64,000 bases of DNA, from NCBI GenBank assembly GCA_043821285.1, contig JBDRCZ010000017.1, positions 15,947 to 79,946 of the forward strand, in the 5' to 3' direction. Below the pieces are notes generated by a model, which saw only the letters and a program-made list of their open reading frames with translations, ran no database searches and had not been told where the DNA came from. Shown piece after piece: positions 3,229 through 59,560 of this stretch (its first letter is position 1; each line of letters opens with the position of its first letter). Source of the stretch: Candidatus Omnitrophota bacterium. GTDB lineage: Bacteria; Omnitrophota; Gorgyraeia; B26-G9; JBDRCZ01. A program made the position numbers and the translations under genes.

Positions 3229-3229
3229 A

Positions 3230-24064: not shown

Positions 24065-24107
24065 TAACTGCTATAACTTATTTAAAATAAACAAGTTATA
24101 GCAGTTA
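24065..24107. repeat. 15-bp perfect hairpin
   Basis: TAACTGCTATAACTT (24065-24079) pairs with AAGTTATAGCAGTTA (24093-24107). Confidence 0.6.
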
Positions 24108-24200
24108 ATCGCTAATATTGTAGTTAACATAAGATACATTATAGGAAGTTAAGGATGGGCCAAGCAAGGCTGGGTTTGCTTGGGTATTTCGGAGTTTTGA

Positions 24201-25373: not shown

Positions 25374-25575
25374 ATTTTCATCGCTTTGAGGATTAAACTT
25401 GATTATTCCCTGTAGTTTGGCTATATGGTGATCTATTGGATGGAAAGTTTGAAAACCGTAGGTTTTCAAATGGATAAAAAATTTCCGTTGCTGCATTGCC
25501 TCATCAGCTTGGCAAAAGACCCTGTAATCTTGCTACAGGGATGGTCAAGCTAATGGAAATTTTTTATTAACCGAT

Positions 25576-27147: not shown

Positions 27148-27954
27148 TTAAATAACTTCAAAGCTAAGCCCCCAGCATAGCTGGGGGCTTAGCTTTGAAG
27201 TTATTTTTTTCTTTTCCTTATCAGATATGCTATTTTCTTCAGTTATAAGTTTCAAAATTAACTGAGAGGGCTTAACGGATTGTTTTAATTTTCTTAGATC
27301 CGGCAAGTCACGTACCTTTTTATTTGTATCTACATATTTATTTTTTATTTTCATGGCAAACGCTTCATCTCCCAGAATACAGCCTTTTAACGTCAGTTTT
27401 TGCAAAGGGAATTTTTCTTTTAACATTCCTGCTGCAACAAACTGCCGATATGATTTTTTGCTCTCAAAAGAAGCCATTATGGTTTTTGTTTCCATGTAGT
27501 TAGGCAATATTTTTGAACCAACATAGTAATGATAACTGCACCAGGGATATTCATAAGGTGTATTAGATAATCCGGCAGCGACGGCGTTAAGATGTATGTA
27601 GCGTGACAGTTCATTAAGGTATGCATCTTTATCAACAACAATTGCTTTATATCTGCCTTGAAAGAGGTGTCCTACCCTCTTTTGTGCTTTATTATAATAT
27701 GTGGTGTAGCTTGAATTTATATACTGCATGCACCGGCTTAAATTAGCATATGGAGTTTCCATAAGCAAGTGATAATGATTAGGCATTAAACAATAGGCAT
27801 GAATTATAAAGCTAAAACGCAGGTATGCATTTTTAATATAAAATAAAAACTTATCTTTATCATAATCAGTAGTAAATATTTCATTTTTATCATTTCCTCT
27901 GGCACTGATATGATAAAAGGCTCCTGGATATTCAATTCTTAATGGTCTAGCCAT
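27148..27954 (-). CDS. IS200/RAYT-like Y1 (HUH) transposase family protein
   Basis: YHISARGN, HUH motif PNHYHLLMETP, and GHLFQGRYKAIVVD with the catalytic Tyr context. The last ~18 codons are encoded by the hairpin at 27151-27205. Confidence 0.75.
   Translation of the reverse strand: MARPLRIEYPGAFYHISARGNDKNEIFTTDYDKDKFLFYIKNAYLRFSFIIHAYCLMPNHYHLLMETPYANLSRCMQYINSSYTTYYNKAQKRVGHLFQGRYKAIVVDKDAYLNELSRYIHLNAVAAGLSNTPYEYPWCSYHYYVGSKILPNYMETKTIMASFESKKSYRQFVAAGMLKEKFPLQKLTLKGCILGDEAFAMKIKNKYVDTNKKVRDLPDLRKLKQSVKPSQLILKLITEENSISDKEKKKITSKLSPQLCWGLSFEVI
27151..27205. repeat. 26-bp perfect hairpin (3-nt loop)
   Basis: AATAACTTCAAAGCTAAGCCCCCAGC-ATA-GCTGGGGGCTTAGCTTTGAAGTTATT, followed by a T-run on the plus strand. 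Confidence 0.85.
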
Positions 27955-28035
27955 AACCTCTCTTTCTGATGATAATAACCTTCGTATATATTATAGGCGT
28001 TATAGTCAATTTTGGCAAATGGCGAGGTCTGACCC

Positions 28036-29508: not shown

Positions 29509-29628
29509 TCCCCCCTTTGTACATGGTTTATTAGATTTTAACAGGATTAGAGGTGATTGTCAAGGATATATCGTGAAAAAGTAAGAAAAATCGTATTGTG
29601 TATTGAGTATTGTGGTTAAGAAATCTAT

Positions 29629-32820: not shown

Positions 32821-33140
32821 ATTACATATATGCTTTCATTCTCGTATTGAGTATCGCGTATTAATGTTTTAAATTCGAAATCCGAATATCTAAATGTTTA
32901 GAATTTGCCATTCGTCATTATAAGTGTTTTATTTTATCTATCTAGTTGATCCTGTCTAATTCGTTCTCGTATTGCGTTTTTTTATTGTCGTCTACTTGTT
33001 TTTATACTCAATACTCGATACACAATACACAATGCGTTGTTTAATCATTTCTCTCCGTGTTCTCTGCGGCTCTGTGTGATAAATTTTAGCTTTTATTTTC
33101 TGTCTTCTGAATTCTGATTTCTGTTTTCTGCTGTTAACTG

Positions 33141-39581: not shown

Positions 39582-40054
39582 AAGTTAATAGCCTATCAGT
39601 TAATTCCAAATGTTCCGCCTATCAAACCGGCGGACAGGCAAATAATAAAATCCAAATGACAAATGAATCATTTAATATCTCAATCTAAAAATCAAAATGA
39701 TATATTAAAATTCAAATATTTTTCTCTTTGACAGGATTTACAGGATTAACATGATTTTTTATCCAGTTAATCCTGTCTATTTTCTTATTTTCTCTGTGAA
39801 CTTTGTGTTCTCTGTGGTTATAAATTTTTTTATTTTTTTTAATCGTAATACTCAATACATGCTACTCAATACGCATTACTTTTTATAGTGTGCTCTCTGT
39901 GGTTAAAATATTTTTTGTTTTTTTATCTACATAATCATCCGTATTCTACGCTCTCTTTTATATGCACTATTTTCATTACAATCATACATATTGTAACCGC
40001 TAATAATTACAATCTGTTAAATATATTTATAACAATTTTAATATATACAAGTAA

Positions 40055-40082
40055 AGTATACCATATTTTTCTGATTTTTCAA
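40055..40082 (-). promoter_or_regulatory. sigma70-like promoter for G2(-G1)
   Basis: Minus strand reads TTGAAA, 16-nt spacer, TGG-TATACT (extended -10). Near-identical to 59561-59589. About 470 nt upstream of the G2 ATG. Confidence 0.6.
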
Positions 40083-40421
40083 GGATTTTGCTAAAAAAAT
40101 ATAGAAAATAACAGATTAAAAGATTCAGGTGATCACGGTTTTAAAACAGTATCAAGGCATTATTTATAACTTATTTATTTATAATATATTATAAAATAAT
40201 TATCGAATATGCCTACATGTTAATTATTCGTGAAATTCGTGTAATTTGTTGTTTAAAAATAAGCAGTTAAAGTTTTTCTTTGTGTGATAAATTTTATTTT
40301 TTACCGCAGAGAAAATCTAAAAGAAATCTCGTTCACAGATGTATGTAAGTTACATCCACTTTCTATTCTTAGTGCGTTACGTAAACGGTAAACTGCCTGC
40401 CTCCCGTTAGGGAGGTAAACT

Positions 40422-40446
40422 AAAAAATTGCCATAGGCAATTTTTT
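40422..40446 (-). terminator. terminator hairpin after G3
   Basis: Minus strand reads AAAAAATTGCC-TAT-GGCAATTTTTT then AGTTTACC. Overlaps the stop codon by 2 nt. Confidence 0.55.
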
Positions 40447-43400
40447 AAATTGCCCGTTCAATTTCAAACAAATCTGCTATCTCTCTCTTCTCCAGTTTTG
40501 TATCTGATCCATTTATGCCTACCCTATAGCCAGTGTGTCTTTCTTGGGGAGCAACTATTAGAGAATAAAGAGCGTGTAGTAACAGCATATCAGAATCAGA
40601 AATATGAGGGTCTATATTTTTTGCTTCTAATATTGATTCATCATCGCTTATTATTTCTTGTATAATTGTTTTTACTATATCTCTATCTTCAGCTCTGCAT
40701 TTTTCATGAATTGCATTCAGACATTGTTCAAAAAATGGTCTGAGCATCATAAGCTGAACATTATCTTCTTGTGTATATGCATTGGCAACTGCTTTTGTAA
40801 CTGTTTCTAAAACAGTTTGCCGGTAATCTGGTCTTACCGTATAGATATTATCAAAAAAGATAAAAGTCCCGGCTGCGGCTTGTGGCATTATTGTCTTGTT
40901 TAGTATCTCATTAATAACATTTCGAGGAAAATATACTAAAATACTTAATAATTTATCTATTGTAGTATTACTTGGGGTTAAACCTTGCTGCTGGATCAAC
41001 TCTTGATATTTTCTTCCTATGATTCTATGCATAGATTCAAGACTTCTTCTATTTGCATTTATCATTAAATTATTTCCTTTAACTGCTGTAACTAAGTCCG
41101 TTAATTCGCTTCGTATCATTTCTCGTTCTTTCTCAAATACATCCGTATCTTCGTTCCTCTGAGATATAAATAACCCTAAAAATTCAAGTTCTAATGCTTT
41201 TTTAAAGGCATCTTCCGAAGTAAATGCGTTTAATCTAACAGTAATATTTTCTAACAACATTAGCTCAAAGCTGGTACCTTGACGAAAAATATGTTTTAGA
41301 AATTTTTCTGCATTAGTAAATTCGGGTGAAAAGATGATTTCTCCACTGACACCATCTACTGTTTTCTCCATCACTTCATTTATCAAATTACCTACTGAAT
41401 CTAAGTTGTGAAACTCGTTTAATCTATTTTCATCTTGTATAACAGCTCTTAAATAAACCTCCATTCTTAAAAGGTAATCAGCCAAAAAAACACCATCAAT
41501 TGCAAAACGTATATTTTCATTCGTATCTTGAGTTCTTGCAGTCAAGGCTTGATAAAGAAAATCATCTATATCGGTCAACATTCTATAAAAGATTTCCATT
41601 GCTGTTTCCTTATCCTGTTTTAGAGCAAGTTCGAGGACATTATTAACATTTGAAAAATCTCGTGAAATATACTCCTTAATTACATCACATAACGCATTGA
41701 ACAGTGGTTTTTTATCACGACGGTAAATAGCAAAACTTAGCCTAATAAATGCTGCTAATATCTCATGGGAATTAAATCCTGAATTTATTAAATAACTTTG
41801 CTCCTTTTCTATATAGATTGGTATAATTTTAGAAACGTCATATCCCGCAATAACTGTGTAAGCAACTGCAGCAAAAATAAGATTATGTGTTTCTGCATCA
41901 TGTTTAGGAATGTTTATTCGTTGTAAGATTTCTCCTAATACTTCTCCTGCCTCAGTAGTTCTCTCCTCTTTTCCTTCAATCTGCGCTTTTATTTTATTAG
42001 TAAAAAATTCAAAAACAAAATCAGGTTCTGCCTTAAGATACGCTTCTATTGTTTCCCAATCTGCTGCTAATAAATTACGCAGTTTTTGGATTTTATCTTG
42101 AACCACGATTAAGTTATTTCGTAGATTGCTTATTTTTTTCTGATTTTTTCTCGTTTGTTTTTGCTCTTTGTTTATGGTTTGCTGAATAGTTCTTTCATTG
42201 CTTTGGCGACGATTAAGTGCCTGCGTCCTTGTAATAACTCCTTCTAAGAGGATTGTTACTTCAGAGAGTTTTTCTCTACGCGCTTTTACTGCCGGGGGCA
42301 TATCTAAAAGTAGAGGTTCCCTTGTTGTCACTGGAGCCTGCCATGCTGGAAGTTCTTCAGATGCTACTTGCATAGCAGCAGCGCCTTGAAGGACCTGAGG
42401 ATATAATGAATGTTTTTGCATTGGGTCTTCAACTAACATAAGCTCACAACTTTGAGGCGGTTTGAGAGCATTAATTCTATTTTGGATAACTACTCCCAAT
42501 CCCCAAGCCCATTCTGCTTGACTTTTATATAAATCAACTAAGGCTTCAATATCCTCACTTTCGTTTATAATTGCGGTTATTCTCTCTACCAGAGGAGCCC
42601 GGCTGTTTCTGTTAGGATAGGTATTAAGCATTTGATATAATTCAGGTATATTACTTAAATCATTATAACCGAGTAATCTTTTTCTCAGTACCTCTGCTAT
42701 TACCCCCCTTATTTGCTTACATCCGTAGGTATATTTATTTATAGAATTATCTGTAAGTAAACGAAGCAGGTTTTCGATATCTAAGGAAAACACTTGCCTG
42801 ATAATACCGAAAATAATATATATTTCTACTTCAGAGTGAATTTTTTTACTAAGTAAATTAGCTAATGCAGCAAGTGCCTCGCCCCCCCATTTACTAACCA
42901 TCTCCTGAGCAATAGCTTGAGCTTGTGTTTTGTCATTATTTTCTGCTTGCTGACGTTTAAATCTATCGGAAATTGCGGTTAATCGTTCAATGCCATCTTC
43001 AATCGAAGAAACAGTTAGGTGTATTTCTGATATTTTTCCTTGAGAAGCAATACTATTACTTAATTGTGCGGCTGCTGCTTGCTTTGTTTTCTGGGGTAAC
43101 CTTGGATTTCGTGACCACTCTGAAAGCAAGCGATCATTTACTTCTGCTAATCTTTTTGCAGTGCTTAACGCCTTAATTCTATACCAAAGATAATTATTCC
43201 AGTATTCATCGTCCCATTCTTGGCTTAGATACACATCAACTAAGGCAACAATATCTTGATTATTTTTTATTATATGTTTCATCCTTCTTCTTGCCAGATC
43301 TTTAATGTCTTCGTTCGGACATAATGTTTCATTATTAATAACATAATATAATGCAGAAATACTTGTTACGTTTCGAGGAATGCTAACAGTTTTTATGATA

Positions 43401-46400
43401 ATTATGCTTTTAATCATACCTCTGGTAACTTCAGCTCCTTTAGTTTCTTGCTGATTCATCGCAGTATATAAATAAAATATTTCTGTAACAGACATTGAGT
43501 TAAGACAATTACCAAGTGCCGACATAGTTATTTCTATTGCTTCTTCATTAAGAAGATTCGTATCAATTTGCTCAGCAAATTGTTTAATAATTTCTAAAAA
43601 CTCATCTTTATCCTTTGTGTTATACATTTCTGTTATAATATTTTTAACTTCTTGAGGAGCGGATGCAATAAAGGCTTGTATTTCTTCGGGTGTCTGATAA
43701 TAATCAGCCAACTCTTTCTCCAGCTTTTCTATTTGTGACGCAATTGTCGTATCTAGTTCTGGTTTATTAATTCGCAGCCACTCTATTATTCTTTTTCTTA
43801 CTGTCCGATCTTGGATGCCAATCAATAATCCTAGTACATGCACTACCTCGTTTTCTAAACACATGTATTGTGACAAGATGTCGTTAAGTTCCGTATTCGC
43901 TGCATTGCTAAAGAATAGGTATATAGTACCAGCAATATGTTTTTGTATGCCCGTAAGTCTAAGGATTTTTTCACTCAAAATATTTCTTATGCTCGAACCC
44001 CAGCTTCTTTCTAAATATAATTCTACTGCTGTCTTTAAATTATCACATTCATTAACCAGTTCTCTTATTCTCATCCTTAGCAGTGCCCGGGTTCCTTCAT
44101 GGTACTCTCTATCATTGAGCAAATCTTGCAGTGGTTCGATACTAGCAATGCCTTGATATTCAGCAAGGCGCTGTTTGATCGCTTCTATTAATTGACTACT
44201 ATTGTCCCCATGATTTAACCTACGCAATAGTTCCTCTAAGGTGAGAGTTTTTATGGGGTCAAAATCTGCTAGTAGTTCTGCAAAAGTTACTTGATTATCA
44301 GAAGGCGCTGCAACTTCTCTTGTCGGGGGGGCATCCCTGTTGGTGTCGGCTCTTTGATTAGCGTTTCGCCATGCTGCTCTTAAGGCACGTGTATCTGACT
44401 GTGATGGTGGCTCTGGAAAATGTACCACCTGAGCTGCATTCGACGGAGCTGTTGTTCGTACAAACCTATCTGGAGGGGATAGTGATAGATCGAAAGCAGC
44501 TGCTAGTTTTTCTAATGAGTTTAGAGTCAAAGGGTTATTGTTTCCTGATGGAGGAACTGTATCTTTTGGTAAAGCAACTTCTGCTGTGTCAGTCCCTTCC
44601 TTTTCTGGTTGTCGCAAGTCACCTGATTGTAATGGTACGGTGTATGCTTGAGGGTTATTTTCTTTTTCCCTTTCCCTTTTCCTTTTCTTTCTTGCAATAG
44701 GAGGACTATCTGCTCTATATTGTTTACGTGCTTTCCTTTTCATTAATACAACTTTATCTTCTTCTTCATCATCATCATATTGGTCACTATCATCTATTGC
44801 ATTTATTAACTCCTCTATTATGAGCATTAAAGCAATCCGTATATTTTCTTCTGATAATTCACCCGAACCCTCTTGCATCAATTGCTCAATTTCTTCCTCT
44901 GACAAAGTTAAATCGTTTATAACACCAATGAGCTGTTCAATGATTTGACCATTCTCGTGTGCGCTTTCAATTATATTATCTATAGCATCTTTTAACGCTT
45001 CATGATATGTATCTTCATCAAGTAGTAAATAAGTTTTTACTAAAAAACTAAGATCTATTTCTAAAGCACTATTTCTCGTTGATCTTACGCCGGTACTACC
45101 AAGCAAGCATAGTAAACTAAATCCCCAAGCCAACCCCTTCCAAATAAAAAATGCCAGTGCATCTGGTCTTGCGGCAACAAAGTGTACTACTGGATATAAT
45201 AATCCTTCATGTCGTGCAAGAGAATTTATGATTGTAAATTCGATGTAGTCGATAATAATGAGCATAGCTGATTTAGCACCAGTAACCGCCTTTTTAACTA
45301 ATTCCCAAACATTTGGTATAAATTGTATCTGCGGTTGTATATATAAAGGAAAGGTCATTATTAAGGAAAGACCTAATATAGCGTGTATTGGTAAATGCCC
45401 TAAGTTTACACTAACCGGGATGCCCGTGATATTACTGATTACCTCTAATATAAAAGGTGCAATCAATAATAAAAAGAGGCCATTTATTAATGGATGGGAA
45501 TTCAGGGTAACACTCTTACCAGCATTACTTTCTTGATAAAATTCTCTTACCGCTCTATTTGTTTTTATTAAAGCACGTAAATCAATAATGATATTTCCAT
45601 TTCTATCTTTACGAAGGTCATGTTTATTTTCCTTGTCAGATAAAAATATCTTATCATCTTCTTTCACAATTTTATATTCCACGTTACCAATCCAAATAAT
45701 ATCATTTTCCCTGAAAGTTACTTCTTTCCTTAAAATATCAATGATTAATTCCTTGCTGTTTGCTTCGTTACGCAGAAGAATAGTATTACCAGCTATTGCA
45801 TATTTTGTATTATCTATCATTCTGTCTTGATGCCACCATGCTATTCTGAGTTTGTAACCATCACCCTTTCCCTCAGTTTTTATTTTTTTTAGACCATCTG
45901 TTGGGAAAAATTCTAACCGTTCTCGTAAACGCTGGATTTTAGTATTGTATTGTCTTATATCTAAAATTCGCTTGTTATGAATGTTCTGAATTACAGCTAA
46001 TAACTCGTTGTCCTTAATACTTGCTAATAATGCGCCATAAAAGGCCAGACCTAAGCTATCTACTCTTAAAACTATTCTTTCTATTTCTGTGTGTTTGTTT
46101 TTGTTAAATAGAGTTGTTAAATAATTAGCCAATATCAGTACAAATTCCCCGCCCCACCACTTTATAACCTCAACCAATTGACCAAGAGACTGCGGTGTAA
46201 TATTTTGATGTTCATTCAGGAGATTTTCAATAATTTGTAATACTGCAGAAACTGAATATACACCAAATTGTTCGGCCAAAGCTTTGATTATTGCCAATCT
46301 TTGCGTTTCATCAAAATTATTAAGATTAGCTTCTTTTTCTTTCATCATCTTAATATAATTTTCGGCTGAATCCCAATCTTGAGTAGACTTATTAGTATCC

Positions 46401-47536
46401 CAATACTGTACTGGTTTGCGATACACTGCTTTTGCTGCTACTAATATATTTTTTTCTTTCTCTGTAAGTGCGGTGTCATCATTTGTCCATATCCTAATCA
46501 TTCCGTGTCTTGGTGCTGTTATATAAAATGAAATTTTTGACGCAAGAAACTCTTCCCATTCTTCTGGAGAAGGCACAGTTGATAAATCAGCACGTAAACG
46601 TATAAAACGGTTATAGTTTTTATTTTCGTTATTAATTATGTCTGCCGGAAGCAGCCGCCGGCCAACATGAATTTCTATATTAGAGTTTTCTGGTATTGGT
46701 TGGGTATAACGGCTTCGATCAGGGGTTGAAACATTCCAGTAGTTTTGTGTTGATATACCAAATCTCAAAGATTCGTTATCTATTTTTATGCTCTCGGGAG
46801 CAAAAAACATCATCATAATTGCATGCGCAGGTAAACGTATTGCATCAATCCAGTAGTGAATTCCTTTACGATAACTATACTCAAGGATAATTTTAATACC
46901 ACGTTCAAACAGAACTTTTAATCCGGGTAAAAAGGCAATATTATTAAATACGCTGTTGGTATTTAATCTAAAGACTTCCATATCCCTGGGGACAGTAAGC
47001 ACTATTCGCGGAGACGCACCTTTAATATCTATTTTTCCATAAGTAGTAATTTCACTTTGCAAATCACGCGCCAACCCAAGCAAACTTAGAAAGTCAATTT
47101 CTTTTAGAACCGGGGGTATTCTTTCAACCGTCTCATCATCTGGACAAGGTATTTCTGGAATTTCCCTAATATTTAATTGATTGTTTTTTTTAGAAATTAC
47201 ATAAGAACGTTGTTTACCAGCTGCGCCTGTTGTTACAAACAATACTATCGAACCATCATTCGCAAATCTTTTCTCGCATGCATCAAACTCAAACTTATCT
47301 TTAATATAACTTACGCCAACATGTCCTTCTGCCCAAGTATATGCATCACTTATTTTTTTGTAAAGCATAATATTTTCTGCAAATAGAGGGTCATTTACTT
47401 CCAAAGGCGGGGCAAGATGGGTATGTAGACCTTTTAGATTGCCGCCGGCGGCCCATGAGATGTCTAAGCATAGAAAGGCATTGATTAATATTATGGAAAT
47501 TAGTCTAAAACAAATTGTACGTGTTAAATTATTCAT
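40445..47536 (-). CDS. giant-family protein G3 (2363 aa), function unknown
   Basis: N-terminus MNNLTRTICFRLISIILINAFLCLDISWAAGGNLKGLHTHLAPPL; C-terminus ...DLFEIERAI. Contains a TM cluster and an acidic then basic/Pro-rich low-complexity segment. The C-terminal ~500 aa are paralogous to G6. Confidence 0.8.
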   Translation of the reverse strand: MNNLTRTICFRLISIILINAFLCLDISWAAGGNLKGLHTHLAPPLEVNDPLFAENIMLYKKISDAYTWAEGHVGVSYIKDKFEFDACEKRFANDGSIVLFVTTGAAGKQRSYVISKKNNQLNIREIPEIPCPDDETVERIPPVLKEIDFLSLLGLARDLQSEITTYGKIDIKGASPRIVLTVPRDMEVFRLNTNSVFNNIAFLPGLKVLFERGIKIILEYSYRKGIHYWIDAIRLPAHAIMMMFFAPESIKIDNESLRFGISTQNYWNVSTPDRSRYTQPIPENSNIEIHVGRRLLPADIINNENKNYNRFIRLRADLSTVPSPEEWEEFLASKISFYITAPRHGMIRIWTNDDTALTEKEKNILVAAKAVYRKPVQYWDTNKSTQDWDSAENYIKMMKEKEANLNNFDETQRLAIIKALAEQFGVYSVSAVLQIIENLLNEHQNITPQSLGQLVEVIKWWGGEFVLILANYLTTLFNKNKHTEIERIVLRVDSLGLAFYGALLASIKDNELLAVIQNIHNKRILDIRQYNTKIQRLRERLEFFPTDGLKKIKTEGKGDGYKLRIAWWHQDRMIDNTKYAIAGNTILLRNEANSKELIIDILRKEVTFRENDIIWIGNVEYKIVKEDDKIFLSDKENKHDLRKDRNGNIIIDLRALIKTNRAVREFYQESNAGKSVTLNSHPLINGLFLLLIAPFILEVISNITGIPVSVNLGHLPIHAILGLSLIMTFPLYIQPQIQFIPNVWELVKKAVTGAKSAMLIIIDYIEFTIINSLARHEGLLYPVVHFVAARPDALAFFIWKGLAWGFSLLCLLGSTGVRSTRNSALEIDLSFLVKTYLLLDEDTYHEALKDAIDNIIESAHENGQIIEQLIGVINDLTLSEEEIEQLMQEGSGELSEENIRIALMLIIEELINAIDDSDQYDDDEEEDKVVLMKRKARKQYRADSPPIARKKRKREREKENNPQAYTVPLQSGDLRQPEKEGTDTAEVALPKDTVPPSGNNNPLTLNSLEKLAAAFDLSLSPPDRFVRTTAPSNAAQVVHFPEPPSQSDTRALRAAWRNANQRADTNRDAPPTREVAAPSDNQVTFAELLADFDPIKTLTLEELLRRLNHGDNSSQLIEAIKQRLAEYQGIASIEPLQDLLNDREYHEGTRALLRMRIRELVNECDNLKTAVELYLERSWGSSIRNILSEKILRLTGIQKHIAGTIYLFFSNAANTELNDILSQYMCLENEVVHVLGLLIGIQDRTVRKRIIEWLRINKPELDTTIASQIEKLEKELADYYQTPEEIQAFIASAPQEVKNIITEMYNTKDKDEFLEIIKQFAEQIDTNLLNEEAIEITMSALGNCLNSMSVTEIFYLYTAMNQQETKGAEVTRGMIKSIIIIKTVSIPRNVTSISALYYVINNETLCPNEDIKDLARRRMKHIIKNNQDIVALVDVYLSQEWDDEYWNNYLWYRIKALSTAKRLAEVNDRLLSEWSRNPRLPQKTKQAAAAQLSNSIASQGKISEIHLTVSSIEDGIERLTAISDRFKRQQAENNDKTQAQAIAQEMVSKWGGEALAALANLLSKKIHSEVEIYIIFGIIRQVFSLDIENLLRLLTDNSINKYTYGCKQIRGVIAEVLRKRLLGYNDLSNIPELYQMLNTYPNRNSRAPLVERITAIINESEDIEALVDLYKSQAEWAWGLGVVIQNRINALKPPQSCELMLVEDPMQKHSLYPQVLQGAAAMQVASEELPAWQAPVTTREPLLLDMPPAVKARREKLSEVTILLEGVITRTQALNRRQSNERTIQQTINKEQKQTRKNQKKISNLRNNLIVVQDKIQKLRNLLAADWETIEAYLKAEPDFVFEFFTNKIKAQIEGKEERTTEAGEVLGEILQRINIPKHDAETHNLIFAAVAYTVIAGYDVSKIIPIYIEKEQSYLINSGFNSHEILAAFIRLSFAIYRRDKKPLFNALCDVIKEYISRDFSNVNNVLELALKQDKETAMEIFYRMLTDIDDFLYQALTARTQDTNENIRFAIDGVFLADYLLRMEVYLRAVIQDENRLNEFHNLDSVGNLINEVMEKTVDGVSGEIIFSPEFTNAEKFLKHIFRQGTSFELMLLENITVRLNAFTSEDAFKKALELEFLGLFISQRNEDTDVFEKEREMIRSELTDLVTAVKGNNLMINANRRSLESMHRIIGRKYQELIQQQGLTPSNTTIDKLLSILVYFPRNVINEILNKTIMPQAAAGTFIFFDNIYTVRPDYRQTVLETVTKAVANAYTQEDNVQLMMLRPFFEQCLNAIHEKCRAEDRDIVKTIIQEIISDDESILEAKNIDPHISDSDMLLLHALYSLIVAPQERHTGYRVGINGSDTKLEKREIADLFEIERAI

Positions 47537-47854
47537 ATGTTAATACCCTGTTAGTTAATTCCAAATGTTCTAATTCAAGATTTAAAAATTCCAAGATTCC
47601 AGATTCTAAAATTATAAAATTCCCCGCTACAAGGTCGAAGATCCGCCATCGTATTAGTGAAGAACGCTGGCGAACAGGCAAATTCTCTAACCTTCGGCAA
47701 GTAAAACGTTTTGAATCGTTAAATCTTAAAATATTCAAATTTTGGAATTGTTTGTTTTATTCTTCTGTCTTCTATTCTCTACCTTCTGTTTTCTGCTTTC
47801 AATCAGCTGTATCAGTAAACGGTAAACTGCCTGCCTTCCATTAGGGAGGTAAAC

Positions 47855-47879
47855 TAAAAAATTGCCGCAGCAATTTTTT
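47855..47879 (-). terminator. terminator hairpin after G4
   Basis: Minus strand reads AAAAAATTGC-TGCG-GCAATTTTTT then AGTTTACC. Confidence 0.55.
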
Positions 47880-50800
47880 AGATTGCTTGTTCTACTGCCA
47901 ACATTTCATTCCACTCTAACTCTGTAAGTGCAGGGGGTTGTTTAGGCATTGTTGTCAATTGTCCTGGGTTATTATCATGAGGATCCAGTCTTTGCTGCTC
48001 TACAATCTTTATTGCTGCTTCAATAATCGCTGCAGTGTCCATCTTATGTGCACGGTATAATATCTCGTGACTTCTTGCGGATTGTCCCCAACCTTGGATT
48101 CCTAACGAAGTTACAGTTGAACCAGTTGTAAGCAGAGATGAAGTTACTACCTTACTTACTGCTCCGCTTAATATTTTTGGAGAAGCGTCTTGAACAGTAA
48201 TTATTGGCACTCCCCGTTCAAGAAGAGGTGGTAAAGCTTCATCGATTAAATCCAATCTGGTCAAATTTATTACTTTTGCGGTAATATCTTGACTTTCCAA
48301 TTGTTCGCTCGCGGCAATTGCAAATTCCACCATTGCTCCGGCAGCAATAATAATAATATCGCTATTTTGTCCGTTTTCTCTTGGATCTTTAATTACATAA
48401 GCACCTTGTTCTGGACTGGGATTTTCTCCTCTATTTAAAACTGGAACATTTTGACGGGTAAGCTGAAGATAAGAAGGTCCTTTACCATCTAATGCCCTGT
48501 GCATAGCAAAATCTACTGCTTCTTCAGCCTCACGGGCATCTGCAGGTATAAAACCAGTCATTTTTTGCAAAAAAGAAATATAGCGAATAACGCCAGCAAC
48601 GATTACTGACTGATGAGTAGAACCGTCTGGCCCAACGCCTAAGCCGGCATGACTTAACGCAACAATTACCGGTAGTTTTGCCCGGGCAATCACAATTATT
48701 TGACTAATCATTCGGTTAGCAAAACAATCAAAGGTTGCGATAACTGGTATCTTACCATATAATGCTAATCCAGCAGCAATTCCTGCCATTGCTTGTTCTC
48801 TTACTCCGGATGGAACGTATCTTCCATTGGTGTTATGACGAGAAAAAATGCCAAAGTCCCTAGCAAACCAATTCAGTCTTGTAGAACTGGCAATGTCCGC
48901 GCAGAAAGCAATAATCTTTTCGACGCGTTTTCCCCAGTCAAGCATCCTGTTACCAAAACCATCACGTGTAGCAAAATTCCTATTTGCTTGGTATCTAATT
49001 TCTGCCGGTGTTTGTAGCATTGTCATTTGAACCGGCTCTGGCTCTTGTGTTTGTTTAATGTTGCTATAAATAAGCAGATTGAATTCCCCAATCTTATAAG
49101 GAACCATTCCATTCAATGCTTCCATAATTGTTGTGGCCATGATGTGTTCATCAAAACCCCGGGTAATAATTAAAACAGGTTTTCCTGTATTATCCTTGTT
49201 TAGCTGTTCAAAGGTTTGACCTAAGATTTCAGCCTGTTCTTGATTATTATTAGCATTGAGCTCAATCACTCTCCAACCATAAGCTTGCCAAATATTAACT
49301 AATTCCGTGTTTGTCTCTGAAGCTTGAAGGACTAAGCAGAGATTATCTATGCCATTGTGTGCGGCGAATCTAGCTGTTTCTGCAAACTGACCTTCTCTTT
49401 CTTCTTTTTCCGTGGCTAAAGCAATAACTCTGCCAGATGCTGTATCCATTTTAGCTCCAAAAGCTATACCTGCGGCCAGAGAAAGACGCATACCCGCAGG
49501 GAATATTTCTTGAGGACTAAAATCTATTTTCATAAGCCCGTCCGTGGGTTTTTCTTTTCCATCAACTAATTCTTTTGCTACTTCTATTATATTTTCAATA
49601 TCCTTGTCACTCATGGACCAAACAACGGAACCTGCGGTTTTAGAAGATGAAGTTACAGTCCTGCTTACCGCATCACCTAAACATACTGGCAATCCATCAT
49701 AAATTGTAAGAATACGGCTTCCTGGCTCAATATACTCTAAGAGCTCACTTCCTGCACCTAATGAGTCTAATTGCGTAACATTTATGATCTTAGTCATCGT
49801 ACCTTGTGATTCTAACTCATTACTGACTTTTATGGTTTGATGAAGACTTTTACCTGAAGAAATAAGAATAACCCTCTTTTTTGCCGTGTCCCACCCTTCA
49901 GATTGACTTATAACATAGGCACCTTGCTCTGGCTGGGGATTTTCTCCTCTATCTATAACCGGAAGATCTGCAGAACTTAAACGAATATAAGAAGCAGTGT
50001 ACTCATCTGGGATATTAAGTGATGTAGGGGCTTTATTTGTTATTTTAGCCAATAATAATGCATTTTTTATTGCCATATCAGTCAACTCATTAGTTTCATT
50101 AGGATCCCCTGGTTCTAACGCAATTACATTATGCATCAGGTCCATAACTCCTGGGGTAAAACTTAACTCTTCAGATTCAGCCGCTAAAATAAACGGTACC
50201 CTTGCCTGAGCATTTATCCTTAATTGGTCTAACATTTTCATCGCATCATTTTCCGGCAGAAAGACAATCGGCAGCATACCCGAATAACCAAACCCAGCAG
50301 CAAAACTGGCTAAGTGCTGTTCTCTATCCTCAACTAAGAAACATCGCTCGATGAGTTTATTTCTTATATCTTCATCAGTAATCTGTGCAATAAATTCATC
50401 AATAAATCTTTGTTTAGAATCGGAATTATTAAAAATAAATACTATCCGTTCATCTTTTTCTGCCCACTGGAGTAGTCTATTTTTAAATGCAACAGATGGA
50501 GAGACTTCCTCATCCTGTGCATAGTTGGTTCTATCTGGTATTGTTGTCGTGTCTGTTTTTTGTAGAGTACTCTCTTTTGATAAATTGTTTTCTTCTTGTT
50601 CTGTCATTTGGTTATCTGAAATAAATCTATCTACATCTGTTGAAAATCCATAAAAATTCATTTGTTGACTAATATTTTCAATTGTGTTTTCTATTTGGGG
50701 GATAGCTTCAGATAGTTCTTTATCATTTAATGCTCTACCGTGAAACGCGGTTGGATCATCTTCCATAAAATCTACGCCTTTACCTTTTTTTGTCTTGGCA

Positions 50801-53553
50801 ATAATTGCTGTTGGCTTGTTTTTAATGTTTCTTGCTTCTTCACAAGCCGCGATAATTTCTAATGGTTCATGGCCATTAATTTCAATAACATGCCAGCCAC
50901 AACCTCTCCACGAACCTGCGACATCCGCACTATCTACTTCTTTAGTCAAGCTATCAATTTGTGCGCCATTAGCATTTACAAATAAGGTAAGATTATCTAA
51001 CCCTAATTCCGCAATATGCCTGGCAGCCTCTGCATATTGTCCTTCCTGTTCTTCCCCATCACCGGCAATAGCAAAGACGTTGGAGTCACGTCCATGCATT
51101 TTAGCTAGAAGCGCCATACCCGCGGCATTGGAGAGTCCCATACCTAAGGAACCGGTCAAGGCTTCTATACCACGAGTACAAATCCAGTCAGTATGTCCAG
51201 GAAGTCCACTGTTTAACTCTCTTAAATGGGATAATTGCTCTTTTGAAATATAGCCAAGTTTAGCTAAAATAGAATAAACTGCTGGCGCTATATGCCCTTC
51301 AGAAATAACTAACCGGTCACGGTCTGGCCAGCGCGGGTCATTTGGTGTATGATTCATAATCCGCGTTCCATCGGAATATCGTCCAAGATATAAAGTGACC
51401 AGTATCTCAGCCGCAGAGAGCGAACCTCCTGGATGTCCTGAACCAGCTATATTAATCATCTCCAGAATATCATTACGGCACATTTCTGCGATTTTCTTTA
51501 ACATCAAGCTTTGGCGCTGCTGTTCTATATAGTCTTTTCGCCAAAAAGCACCAATTATCAAAACACCAACAAGAAATATAGTATATGCGATCAATAAATG
51601 TATTGGAGATTGAAACAGTGTCATTATTGGTATTGAAATGGTTTCAAAACGATGGCTAAATGTTTTTAGTAGTTCGACAAAAGCTAATAAAATCGCACCA
51701 ATTGTGCCCAATAAGGCATAGGGGTTGAATTGTCGAAGGGTTAAATCTTGAGGAAATATATCTGAATTGTGGGGTGAAACATTAGAATCATCCCCTTTCC
51801 TTTTTAAATATTCTATTGCTCCATTAACCACCAAAAGAGCCCTAAAATATGCCTCTAAATAATCTTCTGCTGTTGTAAGAATAATTTTTTGATCATCTAA
51901 TCCAGAACGTGCTATCGGGTGACCTAAAATGTTTTCGTTTTCAGCCATTCTTTGTGAAGCAATCTTCCGCATATGTGTCCAGTTATGAAGTTGATTTACG
52001 CCTTTCAGCGGTAATAAGAGAGGGTTTCTTATACCCTGTGAGGTATAAAATTTTTCAACATCCTCGTCTTTGAGACCTGTCTGCTCTGGCACAAAATGAG
52101 GAGTATCACTAGGATATGCAGCCTCTGCCAAAAAAACATTTGCTGTTATTCTCCCCGAAGAATAATGTTCTGTTACACATTTTAGGTAAAAAACCAATGT
52201 TCCATTTAAAGCAGAGTCAATAAAGCATACTTGCGATGTATTATTATCAATAATTCCTTCATCAATTAACTGCTCATAAGTTTGTTTTGCTTGTTCAGCA
52301 AAAACCGTGTTTGTTTTTAATGTTTCTTCAAAGGATTGTCTTAATTGTGGATAGAAATTTTCCGGATCTCCTTGTTCTGTAGTATTGCGGCGAACTTTTC
52401 GCAATGTGTCTTCAATAATCTTAAAATTGTCGCGTTTTCTTTTTTCCGGAGTAGGATGATCATCTCCTATATAACCTAACATTTTTCGATCAAGATAAAA
52501 TACAAAAGAATTATCAGGGGGAGCCCCTTTTGTCAAAAGACTCAAATAATACTCGGACTCATAGTAAATTGCTCCATCACGTGCTAAATAAACTCTTCGT
52601 CCTTCAGCAGGTAATTGTTCTAATAAATAAGGGATGATTTTAGCTGTGCCTATTAACCACATAAAAGAATCTTTTTTTTGTCTTGAAGTCAAAAAATGGC
52701 AAAGGCTTCTTAGCTTTATATTCAAACTTCCAGTAAATAAGCCTTGATTTCTTACACCTTGTTCTGTCATTACCAATAACTCTTGCTCTCTTCTTCGTAA
52801 TTCTTCTGCTATTTCTACGTTACTTCTCCATCTCAATTGGTCTGGTTTAAGAACTTGATAATGCGTGCGTACCTCATGCCCTTCGATCGGGCTTAAAAAA
52901 TGTATCGGAAATGTTGGACTTATTTCTGGTACATTAATAGAGGTTAACATCATTTCTAAATCCATGGCTATACCTTCTTCGCCGAGTGGATGTCTTAATA
53001 CTGATAATGCGCGCTCTTTAACTTTATCATTGGGGTCTTCCAATATTATTTTTTTCAAAAATTCAACAACCTTTGTTTTAGCTGTCTCACTTTTGTTCCC
53101 AACAATTCCCAAGAGCCGTATTAAATTACTGCGTGGATTGTCTAACACAACACCACCACGATAAAGAAGATCATCAGGGTCAATAATGGTTGGATCATCC
53201 CAAGCAGCGATTAAGGCATTTATCAGTATAATAGCATCGAGACTTAATAATTTTGGAGCTTCATTTCGTCTCCAAATATTAAACTGCGAAAAAGTTAATC
53301 TTAAAACTTGCGTTAGTTCTTCCCTTTTTATCTCTATAGGGTACTTATTTACTGATTGTGTAGATATACCAAGTGTATTTTGTTCAAAAGGCTCTGTAAG
53401 TGAAGACTTACTTATCTCTAAAGGAGGCGAGAGGTGGGTGGACAAATTTTTCAAATTACTATTTGCCGCCCATGAAATGTCAAGACATAAAAAAGAGTTG
53501 ATTAATATAAAGGCTGTTAGTTTGAATAAAATGTCCCGTTTTATTTTTTTCAT
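47878..53553 (-). CDS. giant-family protein G4 (1891 aa) with two tandem split-type transketolase units
   Basis: N-terminus MKKIKRDILFKLTAFILINSFLCLDISWAANSNLKNLSTHLSPPL; C-terminus ...EMLAVEQAI. TM cluster at aa 612-671, transketolase-like sequence from aa ~685 to ~1850. Confidence 0.85.
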   Translation of the reverse strand: MKKIKRDILFKLTAFILINSFLCLDISWAANSNLKNLSTHLSPPLEISKSSLTEPFEQNTLGISTQSVNKYPIEIKREELTQVLRLTFSQFNIWRRNEAPKLLSLDAIILINALIAAWDDPTIIDPDDLLYRGGVVLDNPRSNLIRLLGIVGNKSETAKTKVVEFLKKIILEDPNDKVKERALSVLRHPLGEEGIAMDLEMMLTSINVPEISPTFPIHFLSPIEGHEVRTHYQVLKPDQLRWRSNVEIAEELRRREQELLVMTEQGVRNQGLFTGSLNIKLRSLCHFLTSRQKKDSFMWLIGTAKIIPYLLEQLPAEGRRVYLARDGAIYYESEYYLSLLTKGAPPDNSFVFYLDRKMLGYIGDDHPTPEKRKRDNFKIIEDTLRKVRRNTTEQGDPENFYPQLRQSFEETLKTNTVFAEQAKQTYEQLIDEGIIDNNTSQVCFIDSALNGTLVFYLKCVTEHYSSGRITANVFLAEAAYPSDTPHFVPEQTGLKDEDVEKFYTSQGIRNPLLLPLKGVNQLHNWTHMRKIASQRMAENENILGHPIARSGLDDQKIILTTAEDYLEAYFRALLVVNGAIEYLKRKGDDSNVSPHNSDIFPQDLTLRQFNPYALLGTIGAILLAFVELLKTFSHRFETISIPIMTLFQSPIHLLIAYTIFLVGVLIIGAFWRKDYIEQQRQSLMLKKIAEMCRNDILEMINIAGSGHPGGSLSAAEILVTLYLGRYSDGTRIMNHTPNDPRWPDRDRLVISEGHIAPAVYSILAKLGYISKEQLSHLRELNSGLPGHTDWICTRGIEALTGSLGMGLSNAAGMALLAKMHGRDSNVFAIAGDGEEQEGQYAEAARHIAELGLDNLTLFVNANGAQIDSLTKEVDSADVAGSWRGCGWHVIEINGHEPLEIIAACEEARNIKNKPTAIIAKTKKGKGVDFMEDDPTAFHGRALNDKELSEAIPQIENTIENISQQMNFYGFSTDVDRFISDNQMTEQEENNLSKESTLQKTDTTTIPDRTNYAQDEEVSPSVAFKNRLLQWAEKDERIVFIFNNSDSKQRFIDEFIAQITDEDIRNKLIERCFLVEDREQHLASFAAGFGYSGMLPIVFLPENDAMKMLDQLRINAQARVPFILAAESEELSFTPGVMDLMHNVIALEPGDPNETNELTDMAIKNALLLAKITNKAPTSLNIPDEYTASYIRLSSADLPVIDRGENPQPEQGAYVISQSEGWDTAKKRVILISSGKSLHQTIKVSNELESQGTMTKIINVTQLDSLGAGSELLEYIEPGSRILTIYDGLPVCLGDAVSRTVTSSSKTAGSVVWSMSDKDIENIIEVAKELVDGKEKPTDGLMKIDFSPQEIFPAGMRLSLAAGIAFGAKMDTASGRVIALATEKEEREGQFAETARFAAHNGIDNLCLVLQASETNTELVNIWQAYGWRVIELNANNNQEQAEILGQTFEQLNKDNTGKPVLIITRGFDEHIMATTIMEALNGMVPYKIGEFNLLIYSNIKQTQEPEPVQMTMLQTPAEIRYQANRNFATRDGFGNRMLDWGKRVEKIIAFCADIASSTRLNWFARDFGIFSRHNTNGRYVPSGVREQAMAGIAAGLALYGKIPVIATFDCFANRMISQIIVIARAKLPVIVALSHAGLGVGPDGSTHQSVIVAGVIRYISFLQKMTGFIPADAREAEEAVDFAMHRALDGKGPSYLQLTRQNVPVLNRGENPSPEQGAYVIKDPRENGQNSDIIIIAAGAMVEFAIAASEQLESQDITAKVINLTRLDLIDEALPPLLERGVPIITVQDASPKILSGAVSKVVTSSLLTTGSTVTSLGIQGWGQSARSHEILYRAHKMDTAAIIEAAIKIVEQQRLDPHDNNPGQLTTMPKQPPALTELEWNEMLAVEQAI
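48004..49521 (-). other. G4 transketolase unit 2: truncated/degenerate PP part, intact Pyr + C-terminal domains
   Basis: The PP remnant has TEKEEREGQ where GDGExxEGQ is expected. The Pyr domain has ATRDGFG, VREQAMAGIAAGLA, GPDGSTHQ. The C-terminal domain has IIIIAAGAMV...AKVINLTRLD. Confidence 0.75.
49564..50511 (-). other. G4 transketolase unit 1, Pyr + C-terminal domains, degenerate
   Basis: Collinear with the unit 2 Pyr domain (shared DRGENPQPEQGAYVI / NRGENPSPEQGAYVI), but the GxDGxTHQ position reads ESEELSFTPGV. Confidence 0.6.
50719..51501 (-). other. G4 transketolase unit 1, TPP (PP) domain, motifs intact
   Basis: SGHPGGSLSAAEILVTLY, DRDRLVISEGH, GSLGMGLSNAAGMA, GDGEEQEGQYAEAARHIAELGLDNLTLFVNANG. 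Confidence 0.8.
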
Positions 53554-53751
53554 GATTTGTAGATATGTTTATCCATTCCAGATTTTAAAATTCCCCGCCA
53601 TAATGCGTTGACAGGCAGATTCAAAATTTAAATATTTTCTTTGAAACAAGTGTCACATGATTAATCTGATTTTTTATCCTTCTTTATCCTATTAATCCTG
53701 TCTATTTTTTCTGCTTTTTTGTCTTCCAAATTCTGACTTCTGTTTTCTATC

Positions 53752-55232
53752 ACAGTACTTTGTTAAAAATCAGGTCTTTTCAAAAAAATCATTTACGTAA
53801 GTCGTGAAAACTCATAACTTATGTAATTTCAATACTTTACGTTAATTTTTTCCTTGACAATATCCACAACTCCTGCTATGGTATATAGTTGTAATCAAAC
53901 CACCGTAACACACAACAGGAGGTGGATATGGGTATTTTTAATCTCACTATTTCGGTAATCAATAATTTCTTATTTCGTTTTAAACCTGCCTTCTCAAAAA
54001 AACAATTTATCGTTTTCTCCTTCCTGATCTATGCTTTGTTTAAAGACTACAAGAGAAATTCCCTTTATGCCCTCGCCTCTAAAACTCCAATCAACTATCA
54101 GGCTTGTCAGTACTTCTTATCTGAAGGAAAATGGAGTATCGATGATCTTAATAATATAAGGTTAAAAATTATTGAACATCAAAGAACTACTTCTGCTACT
54201 TCCTCCGGCGTCTTAGTTATTGATGATACTTCTCCTAAGCCTTTTGCTAAAGCTACCGCCGGTGCTAAACGTCAACACTGTGGTGTCTTAAATCGTGAAG
54301 AAATCTGTAATGTTGCTGTATTCTCTGCCTTCGCCTCCAAAACTAAACGCTTCCCGATAAACCTTAAATCTTATCTCCCCGCTGAAAAATTCTTATTTGG
54401 CAAAGAGGATGTAGATTTTAAAAGTAAGCTCGATCTTGCCCAAATATTAGTCGATGATGCCTTAGAAAGAAAAATTAAATTCTCTTCCCTCGTCATAGAT
54501 GCATGGTATGCTCAGTCTTCACAATTCCTTGAGTTTGTTCACTGCCAGAGAAAACTGCCCTTCATTGGTGAATTAAAGTCCAATCGTAACATCTTCTTTT
54601 ACCATCCGCTAAAGCGGAAACACTGCTGGATCCAGCAGGATGAGCTGGTGAAACTCATCAAAAAACATTATCCGCATAAGTGTAGGTTTTTTACCTCCAC
54701 GAGCAAAGATGGTAAGAAGAAGTCTTGGGTCTTCTACACCTTCAAGGGACTGCTGAAAGATTGTTCTGTTCCCTTAAGCATAGTGGTGATCTTTGGTAAG
54801 TGGGATAATCAGGATGATAAGAATGTTCATATCCTTATCTCCAATCAGACCCGCCTGGCTACTAAGACCATCATTTCCACCTACCTGCTTCGTTGGGGAA
54901 TAGAGCTTATCTTCAGGGAGCTCAAGGATGTCTTCTCCTTTGACCAATACCAGGTTAGACATACCAAACAGATCGAACGTTACTAGACACTATGCCTTAT
55001 TGCATGGAGCCTGTTATATTGGGTCAAACAAAATGCCTATCTTACCAAAATCCTTGAGCATAAACCTGCTACCTTCTATGACTACAAACAGGCCATTGAC
55101 TCCTTACTCCTTTATGATGCTCATCAGTCTCTTTCAAAGAACAGTCATCTTGCTCAGAAATATTTTAAAATTAAATCGGATAATTTTAAACAGCAAATCG
55201 CTCGCGTTGCCTGATTTTTAACAAAGTCCTGT
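53752..55232 (+). mobile_element. IS4/IS701-like insertion sequence (1481 bp)
   Basis: 23-bp terminal inverted repeats ACAGTACTTTGTTAAAAATCAGG (53752-53774) and reverse-complement ACAGGACTTTGTTAAAAATCAGG (55210-55232), 1 mismatch. Direct 6-bp flanks TCTATC (53746-53751 and 55233-55238). Confidence 0.8.
53922..55214 (+). pseudogene. DDE transposase (IS4/IS701-like) interrupted by an in-frame TAG
   Basis: VLVIDDTS, LVIDAWY, YLLRWGIELIFRELK blocks. TAG at 54984-54986, after which the same frame continues 75 codons (TLCLIAWSLLYWVKQN...QQIARVA) to TGA 55212-55214. Confidence 0.65.
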
Positions 55233-55287
55233 TCTATCATTTAAAACATATAGTAGACAGCAAACTGTACACTGTAAACGGTAAACT

Positions 55288-55312
55288 AAAAATTGCCGAT
55301 GGCAATTTTTTT
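55288..55312 (-). terminator. terminator hairpin after G5
   Basis: Minus strand reads AAAAAAATTGCC-ATC-GGCAATTTTT then AGTTTACCGTTTAC. Confidence 0.55.
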
Positions 55313-59036: not shown

Positions 59037-59560
59037 AATAAATATCTCCAGTTATTTAATTTTAAATGTCCCGCCTATCAAACCGGCGACAGGCAAATGA
59101 ATCATTAAATAATTCAATCTTTAAAATTTATTTATGTAATTTGTGTGATTTGTTGTTAATAAAATAAGTACTTGAAATCTTTCTTTGTGTGCTCCGTGTC
59201 TCTGTGTGACAAATCTAATATTTTTGTTTCGCTTGTCCGCCGTGCTCTGTTTGGCGGGTCATTCTGGTTTCGTTATTCGTTATTAAATTATCCTGTCTAT
59301 CATCCACAATGATTGGCGGATCTTCAATTTTTTATATTTTCTCTGTGAACTTTGCGAGCTCTGTGGTGATAAATTTTTTATTTTTTTTTACCGCGATACT
59401 CAATACTCATTGCTTTTTATAGTGTGCGCTCTGTGATGATAATTTTTGTTTTGTTTTTTTAGCCACAATGCTCAATACACAATACCCGATACTTAATCAT
59501 ATTACTTTTCATAATGCCTTGTTATAAATAAATTTATAACATCTTTTAAATAGTTTTATA

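Follow-up and report, generated by a model that had tools for sequence, protein, structure and literature searches.

We analyzed a 64,000-nt window (positions 15,947 to 79,946 of contig JBDRCZ010000017.1, assembly GCA_043821285.1, Candidatus Omnitrophota bacterium) that carries six large genes of one family, G1 to G6. The 67-nt stretch that follows G-gene stop codons was found to be a composite of a terminator (part 1) and a short repeat (part 2). We judge it probable that the 3' sequence shared by G3, G4, G5, and G6 unites a family-specific terminator with a dispersed intergenic repeat similar to repetitive extragenic palindromes (REP) and bacterial interspersed mosaic elements (BIME), and we regard the composite as a fairly ordinary genome feature. 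The four minus-strand sequences that the initial annotation quoted after these stop codons are present as given and occur far above chance. Its proposal that they form one conserved 3' module of the G genes survived only for the terminator, which is restricted to the family (four of six members); the stretch as a whole is neither one unit nor a signature of the G genes.

The genes concerned and the features of part 1 are located as follows.
40445-47536, minus strand: G3 open reading frame (ORF)
47878-53553, minus strand: G4 ORF
55311-59036, minus strand: G5 ORF
59959 to past the window end, minus strand: G6 ORF, still open at the end, with its N-terminus unseen
40422-40447, minus strand: G3 intrinsic terminator TAAAAAATTGCC-TAT-GGCAATTTTTT, the first three bases of which are the TAA stop codon (RNAfold, -9.6 kcal/mol)
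47856-47880, minus strand: G4 terminator, loop TGCG
55288-55313, minus strand: G5 terminator
59936-59961, minus strand: G6 terminator, with an A-U to G-C compensatory stem change
40447-40454, minus strand: arm 1 GGCAATTT, running from the third position of an Arg codon through the Ala and Ile codons to the first position of the G3 stop codon

Each terminator has the form of an A-run, a hairpin, and a T-run in sense orientation, with the 5' arm starting at the TAA stop codon of G3, G4, G5, or G6. The A/U-rich stem of 10 to 11 bp contains a TTGCC/GGCAA core, is closed by a 3- to 4-nt loop, and is followed by 5 to 6 T; the core itself has only 4 to 5 pairs, three of them G-C. The loops vary (TAT, TGCG, ATC, and TAT for G3, G4, G5, and G6, respectively), the stem is kept in all four copies, and the calculated fold energies range from -8.8 to -11.9 kcal/mol. 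The G6 stem AAAAAGTTGCC/GGCAACTTTTT differs from that of G3 (AAAAAATTGCC/GGCAATTTTTT) in a compensatory manner, although this amounts to one pair among only four sequences. Searching with the terminator pattern and allowing up to three mismatches gave four matches versus 0.01 expected and none elsewhere in the window, in agreement with the earlier claim that four co-oriented G genes share non-coding 3' sequence. G1 and G2 lack the module: G1 is followed by a different A/T palindrome and G2 by no hairpin after the stop codon. A scan for the terminator plus GTTWACC in the GTDB representatives, which do not include the source metagenome-assembled genome (MAG) or its close relatives, returned one chance match, in Acidithiobacillus. 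A Rho-independent terminator of this kind most likely ends the G3, G4, G5, and G6 transcripts.

A third arm lies within the coding sequence. The last codons, GGCAAT (AGCAAT in G4), are complementary to the terminator 5' arm ATTGCC (ATTGCT in G4), and the G4 pair AGCAAT/ATTGCT is a matched double change relative to G3. In G3, pairing of arm 1 with the terminator 5' arm provides an alternative hairpin of -6.7 kcal/mol, and the corresponding energies across the copies lie between -3.6 and -6.9 kcal/mol. Because the last codons can pair with the 5' arm, translation up to the stop codon may influence terminator folding through this third arm and thereby modulate termination.

In part 2, between one and three GTTTAC(C) heptamers precede a small GC hairpin, the sequence of which varies, and the box GGCAGGCAG comes last; its elements after the four genes are listed below.
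40415-40420, 40388-40393, and 40381-40386, minus strand: G3 GTTTAC copies
40414-40420, minus strand: first GTTTACC heptamer of G3
40400-40415, minus strand: G3 hairpin 2, CCTCCC-TAAC-GGGAGG, extended by GUUU:AGGC pairing
40393-40401, minus strand: G3 3' box GGCAGGCAG, equal to the 3' arm of the full metagenome palindrome described below
40381-40393, minus strand: G3 tandem GTTTACC GTTTAC, the end of the block common to G3 and G4
47815-47880, minus strand: whole G4 composite, comprising the terminator, GTTTACC, CCTCCC-TAAT-GGAAGG (one mismatch), GGCAGGCAG, and GTTTACCGTTTAC
47849-47854, 47822-47827, and 47815-47820, minus strand: G4 GTTTAC copies
47827-47835, minus strand: G4 GGCAGGCAG, preceded by GA instead of GG
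55255-55313, minus strand: G5 short form, comprising the terminator and five degenerate heptamers (AGTTTAC CGTTTAC AGTGTAC AGTTTGC TGTCTAC)
55286-55267, minus strand: G5 heptamers GTTTAC, GTTTAC, and GTGTAC, inside a period-7 array (55262-55287)
59895-59961, minus strand: G6 rearranged form, comprising the terminator, GTTAACC GTTTACT GTTTACC, the weak hairpin GTCCTACCGGAGG, and GGCAGGCAG
59935-59916, minus strand: G6 GTTAAC, GTTTAC, and GTTTAC
59895-59903, minus strand: G6 GGCAGGCAG

The G5 short form lacks both the GC hairpin and GGCAGGCAG. The segment from GUUUACC to GGCAGGCAG of G3 folds with -14.3 kcal/mol, and GUUU can pair with AGGC of the box through G-U pairs in every copy. The CCTCCC/GGGAGG hairpin of the initial annotation is perfect in G3 only; G4 has one uncompensated mismatch, G6 has a different and weaker stem, and G5 has none. 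Conservation of this RNA structure was not borne out, as G3 and G4 show no covariation and their sole stem difference breaks a pair. The combined motifs are enriched in the window: GTTTACNGTTTAC with up to one mismatch gave eight matches versus 0.29 expected, a number reached in 0 of 100 shuffles, and GGAGGCAGGCAG with up to two mismatches gave seven versus 1.44 expected. Bare GTTTACC is barely enriched (12 matches versus 6.4 expected). Rfam 15 contained no relevant family, at the gathering threshold or at E values up to 1, for the window or for 17 metagenome loci. We also considered a small ORF preceded by GGGAGG as a Shine-Dalgarno sequence and rejected it, as a start codon is absent and the frameshifted or read-through frames close within about 13 codons.

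The repeat is not confined to the G genes, as one copy follows a phosphoesterase gene and another lies antisense in the guaA-dnaE spacer, and as G1 and G2 lack the module.
3731-3778, plus strand: repeat copy after a non-G gene, with GTTTACGGTTTAC (3731-3743), the hairpin ACAGT...ACTGT, and CCAGGCAG (3771-3778)
7406-7432, minus strand: degenerate version of the repeat, GTTTACC-CC-TATCCT-GG-GGGCAAGCAG, lying between guaA and dnaE and antisense to each of them

The first of these begins 13 nt past the stop codon of a metallophosphoesterase ORF (3215-3718) and has no terminator hairpin. It had escaped the initial annotation, as had the membership of G1 and G2, which lack the module, in the same family and the perfection of the hairpin in G3 alone. 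The related word reported there for the guaA-dnaE spacer is real (GGGGTAAACTG, 7424-7434) and belongs to the fuller antisense copy at 7406-7432, which overlaps a match at 7402-7446 (E 0.8) of R1, a covariance model of the metagenome family. In the window, all six copies lie between genes, five in sense and one in antisense orientation, and the heptamers are placed 1 to 45 nt past stop codons. The idea that GTTTAC, hairpin, and CAGGCAG mark the G genes is not supported, since they also occur after a non-G gene and antisense between guaA and dnaE and have fuller relatives on metagenome contigs with no G gene nearby.

The metagenome relatives reveal a more complete form of the repeat. The query GTTTACC-N6-12-GRAGGCAGGCAG returned 93 loci, which is approximately the chance expectation, but in 16 of the 93 the motif is directly preceded by a sequence that the query did not specify, namely a 5' arm CCTGCCTGCC or a close variant differing from it at one to three positions. 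The full form is a palindrome of about 42 nt, CCTGCCTGCC-G-GTTTACC-TCCC-N4-GGGA-GGCAGGCAGG, with a fold energy of -26.3 kcal/mol; in 12 of the 16 palindromes, the TCCC-N4-GGGA hairpin matches that of G3. At least 12 of the 16 lie clearly between genes, and among the 13 with an interpretable neighbor, six lie sense-downstream, four antisense-downstream, and three upstream of the nearest gene. They occur on unrelated contigs without a nearby G gene, and one 7.8-kb contig (locus L063) has four to five variant copies, mostly in spacers between genes. Period-7 and period-8 arrays reach 3.6 and 2.7 per 10 kb in the family contigs, compared with 1.2 and 0.45 in chance loci. GTTTACC and the arm GCCTGCC are three transitions apart, and in the window copies, which have no 5' arm, GUUUACC may substitute for it by G-U pairing with GGCAGGC. 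Homology of the window copies to the metagenome family is likely but not proven. A scan of viral contigs for the full motif gave no matches; CTGCCTRCCGGTTTACC gave 40, which we disregarded as they derive largely from one phage sequence common to about 35 contigs.

The intergenic DNA of the window is itself rich in heptamers. Its match frequency at lags of 7, 14, and 21 is 0.30 to 0.31, compared with about 0.285 at other lags, and coding DNA shows no such signal. All six strong period-7 arrays are intergenic and have differing units (CAATACT, GTATTGT, TTCTGAN, and ACAGTTT), and the GTTTAC repeats fall into the same class. Further short heptamer arrays with varied units are seen, e.g., at 7333-7362, 7476-7515, 29592-29614, and 33004-33132. 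YAG-A-N3 arrays occur downstream of G2, G4, and G5 (33097-33130, 47745-47800, and 53700-53756, minus strand; e.g., CAGAAAA CAGAAAT CAGAATT... and ACAGAAG GTAGAGA ATAGAAG); with NAG triplets at 7-nt spacing, they may resemble HutP-type binding sites. If coding sequence is limited to ORFs of 150 aa or more, about 16% of the window is spacer, versus 4 to 7% in the compact DnaE loci of the nearest Omnitrophota relatives (L002-L004), where the repeat motif is absent. The window DnaE is 100% identical to an NCBI protein of a Candidatus Omnitrophota MAG, and its next closest relatives share at most 62 to 68% identity.

Similarity between the G units extends well beyond the composite. Blocks of 87 to 96% identity, which include a promoter-like TTGAAA-N16/17-TGnTATACT, follow the same order in the 863-nt G3-G2 spacer and the 922-nt G6-G5 spacer, and it is this collinearity in conserved patches that upholds the earlier description of the unit ends as modular. 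The G3 and G4 composites are 96% identical over 52 nt; beyond GTTTACCGTTTAC on one side and immediately before the last codons on the other, the similarity breaks off abruptly. At the other end, the shared 5' sequence noted previously is a block of 175 nt across the start codons of G1 to G5, made up largely of N-terminal coding sequence along with some 35 nt of leader, that recurs at 63 to 89% identity. Because the flanking proteins are at most 36% identical and a neutral spacer of that age would be unrecognizable, the shared blocks are either under selection or homogenized by gene conversion, and the data do not separate the two. We propose that G3 to G6 share the composite because the unit ends were copied together by segmental duplication, probably followed by homogenization through gene conversion. 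The two parts probably have different histories, part 2 being a copy of a short dispersed repeat that resides in intergenic DNA built from heptamer arrays; its likeliest roles would be as a back-up stem-loop or in protecting the 3' ends of read-through transcripts, or it may have no role, as a selfish or neutral repeat.

The promoter-like sites TTGAAA-N16/17-TATACT, with the extended -10 TG, lie at 40055-40082 and 59561-59589 (minus strand), about 470 to 520 nt upstream of the G2 and G5 starts, which implies long repeat-filled leaders for these two genes; a comparable site was not seen for G1, G3, and G4. A leader box T(T/C)TGCCTGT(C/T) is found at 39633-39642, 47673-47682, 53610-53619, and 59088-59097 (minus strand), about 50 to 140 nt upstream of the G2, G3, G4, and G5 starts; a CGCC...GGCG hairpin, the loop of which varies, comes after it. 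The leader box shows complementarity both to the 3' box GGCAGGCA and to the C-terminal codons GAACAGGCAA, and it matches the 5' arm and loop of a simple hairpin CCTGCCTGTCGGCAGGCAGG in metagenome locus L063; the statistics are weak. A split element with its 5' half GCCTGCCTGCCGGTTT in the leader was rejected: it gave one match at two mismatches versus 0.18 expected, which is not significant, and GGTTT lies in a loop that G3 and G4 do not conserve.

The G family spans 29833 to at least 63891 and encodes proteins of 995 to more than 2363 aa, of which G1 to G5 are NCBI singletons (MFH1776242-47; locus tags from ABH952_01575 on). G1 to G5 have about 55 N-terminal residues in common (MNNLTRxIxFRLIxIILINAFLCLDISWAAGGNLKGLHTHLAPPL) that look like a signal peptide, and all six C-termini have a hydrophobic stretch followed by EQAI (five proteins) or ERAI (G3); these shared ends place G1 and G2 in the same protein family as G3 to G6. 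The G3 and G6 proteins are 36% identical across 590 residues, and similarity among the other bodies was undetectable in protein comparison. Transketolase is recognizable in G4, and an S-adenosylmethionine (SAM) methyltransferase together with a phosphoribosyltransferase-like (PRTase-like) stretch in G5; the other bodies have no Pfam matches. These enzyme domains are of cytoplasmic type. A profile of the G N-terminus searched against 5.8 billion proteins identified a sole other member, P0001, a 67-aa protein from another contig of the same MAG. A protein search found no homologue of the C-terminal 630 residues of G3, and a metagenome scan for the G N-terminus gave 296 pattern matches, none of which was confirmed by tblastn.

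Two mobile-element genes lie in or beside the array.
53753-55231: insertion sequence of the IS701 family that separates the G5 3' end from the G4 leader, with a transposase ORF on the plus strand (53922-54986)
27148-27954, minus strand: RAYT-like Y1-transposase ORF of 268 aa, scoring 75.7 bits against the cut-off of 80 for NF047646 (REP-associated tyrosine transposase, RAYT)

The IS701 element has 22-bp terminal inverted repeats (53753-53774 and 55210-55231) and an intact 8-bp target duplication TGATAGAA (53745-53752 and 55232-55239). We rejected truncation by this element as the cause of the G5 short form, as it inserted downstream of the heptamers and its duplication is intact. The RAYT-like gene is flanked by a perfect 27-bp palindrome at its 3' end (27150-27206) and by GGGTCAGACCTCGCC upstream (28021-28035). 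A homologue of its product with 39% identity, at locus L016 (1347-2210), is flanked by inverted GGGTCAGGTCTA repeats. A match to the repeat motif, GTTTACCAAAGAGAGGAGGCAGGCAG (2351-2376), one of the metagenome matches that otherwise look like chance, lies 140 nt upstream of this homologue and forms no hairpin there; the rough chance of such a placement is about 1%, and we record it as a curiosity. Near 24000-25600, the GC skew changes sign and the genes switch from plus to minus in convergent fashion, a pattern that a replication terminus, or strand bias of transcription alone, could produce.

Several observations weigh against reading the composite as a terminator joined to a REP/BIME-like repeat. 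The minus-strand sites were missed by a simple terminator scanner; by our reading, the T-run was folded into the stem against the A-run, so that no T-tail was found. The window copies have no 5' arm of the metagenome palindrome, and model R1 scores them at only E 0.2 to 3 as partial matches; they are therefore half-elements. The evidence for their homology is a 24-nt match, much of it imposed by the search pattern, together with a shared hairpin position. The window intergenic DNA and the contigs of the family show no excess of shared 11-mers, the level being no higher than for coding DNA, and the two have in common only the style of heptamer arrays and the element itself. The flanks of the RAYT-like gene contain neither GTTTACC nor GGCAGGCAG. 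The 87 to 96% identical blocks beside 36% identical proteins could reflect selection on function and not gene conversion. Finally, five of the six window copies are in sense orientation near a stop codon, just as would be seen for a dedicated element of the 3' untranslated region (UTR).

Such a dedicated cis-acting RNA element of the G mRNAs is an alternative that we consider unlikely. GUUUACC, hairpin 2, and GGCAGGCAG would form a 3'-UTR structure that is bound by an RNA-binding protein or pairs with the conserved 5'-leader box UUUGCCUGUY, and would regulate very long mRNAs for secreted proteins at the level of their stability, processing, or translation. The sense copies lie no more than 45 nt from the stop codon, the GUUU:AGGC pairing needs G-U pairs and so functions only on the sense RNA strand, and the inner stem varies (CCTCCC/GGGAGG, CCCC/GGGG, and ACAGT/ACTGT) while the flanking motifs are kept. 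The non-coding blocks are also far better conserved than the adjoining coding sequence, and the leader box TTTGCCTGTY before G2, G3, G4, and G5 is complementary to GGCAGGCA. That complementarity, however, covers only 8 to 9 nt and is not distinctive (15 matches versus 10 expected), and the copies were found by these same motifs, so the pairing is partly built into the search. The element sits downstream of a good terminator, and therefore most transcripts may not contain it. Its hairpin and GGCAGGCAG box are missing from G1, G2, and G5, the broken hairpin 2 pair of G4 is uncompensated relative to G3, and the metagenome relatives occur in both orientations, some of them upstream of genes. We regard as more speculative still the broader notion that the constant unit ends constitute one cis-acting system for large, probably secreted orphan proteins of an Omnitrophota lineage. 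Such a system would comprise the leader box UUUGCCUGUY and its hairpin, the 55 N-terminal residues, the EQAI codons, the three-arm terminator, and GUUUACC/hairpin/GGCAGGCAG; pairing of its 5' and 3' boxes, either across the mRNA or across the spacer, would govern processing, stability, or translation-coupled termination, and its constant ends would let unrelated enzyme bodies be swapped by recombination.

Two readings at the DNA level have less to commend them. If the inverted boxes CTGCCTGYC (leader) and GGCAGGCAG (3' end) bracketing each G gene were boundaries of recombination or mobility, like terminal inverted repeats or attC-type sites, the bodies could be exchanged as cassettes between constant ends. 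This fits the unrelated nature of the bodies (transketolase, methyltransferase plus PRTase, or no Pfam match) between common ends, the identity of the two boxes with the two arms of one palindrome in the metagenome copies, and the IS701-family element and RAYT-like gene in or beside the array. We nevertheless hold it to be very unlikely: the homology passes the boxes, extending at least about 30 nt upstream of the leader box and 12 nt past GGCAGGCAG in G3/G4, GTTTACC does not fit the attC core GTTRRRY, the spacers are long and promoter-bearing, and no integrase was present among the ORFs tested, in which IS701 and Y1 transposases were found. The least probable reading, to which we give hardly any credence, is a polar sequence or protein-binding site linked to replication, the copies of which would point with the leading strand toward the switch at about 24 to 25.5 kb. 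GC skew sign and gene strand both change near there, and five of the six copies fall on what we infer to be the leading strand; gene direction is, however, fully confounded with strand in the window, the copies number only six, of which four are paralogous, a 7-bp repeat spacing is unusual for DNA-binding sites, and the metagenome copies are mixed in orientation relative to co-directional genes.

If the preferred explanation of a family terminator plus a dispersed repeat is correct, it is mostly housekeeping knowledge, namely a terminator signature for one gene family, and it would also describe, for the first time in an Omnitrophota genome, a REP/BIME-like palindrome and mosaic spacers rich in heptamers; a full-text literature search returned no description of REP/BIME-like repeats in this phylum. 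The repeat should not serve as a G-gene marker. Since the metagenome copies are found on contigs of 1 to 5 kb, it probably helps to fragment such assemblies. The non-coding blocks, which are either selected or actively homogenized, merit examination across the genome. Of greater interest is the context: seven orphan genes of one MAG with a signal-like N-terminus and an EQAI C-terminus, their orphan status measured against the 5.8-billion-protein database and their bodies otherwise unrelated, some with recognizable enzyme domains.

Among known systems, the REP/BIME and REPIN-RAYT elements of Proteobacteria are short, extragenic, imperfect palindromes that occur in either orientation, often just downstream of genes. 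Part 2 is likewise extragenic and found in either orientation, with several copies per locus, mosaic spacers containing other motifs, and a RAYT-like gene within the window. The 64 kb of the source genome holds four to six copies. Part 2 differs in its sequence, its asymmetric GTTTACC bulge, and the window half-elements that lack one arm. Membership in the REP/BIME class is not established, because the window palindrome is incomplete and the RAYT-like gene, unlike that of a REPIN-RAYT system, is not flanked by the repeat. The heptamers of the window are also similar to cyanobacterial short tandemly repeated repetitive (STRR) sequences. The TAACTGA repeats, described in Beggiatoaceae, Cyanobacteria, and Bacteroidetes, are 7-nt direct repeats located mostly just upstream of start codons, and a post-transcriptional binding-site role was proposed for them (PMC4679880). 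Our repeats resemble these in being tandem, restricted to intergenic DNA, and present in few copies per set, whereas the unit here is GTTTAC(C), is placed just after stop codons, and is one of many in the genome (CAATACT, CAGAAAN, and others). Integron attC sites share with the composite an imperfect palindrome 3' of co-oriented genes with unrelated bodies and a GTT triplet; we rejected this assignment on core sites and context, as the RYYYAAC/GTTRRRY cores are absent, GTTTACC is unpaired in the full element and not in a stem, and the G spacers are 320 to 920 nt long with promoter-like sites. The terminators agree with known intrinsic terminators, including bidirectional A-run/T-run types that overlap a stop codon, in having a sense hairpin and T-run right after the stop codon, a conserved stem with a variable loop, and one compensatory stem change. 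They depart from these in the mostly A-U stem, the third complementary arm inside the last codons, and the recurrence of one sequence at four paralogous G genes in place of individually evolved terminators.

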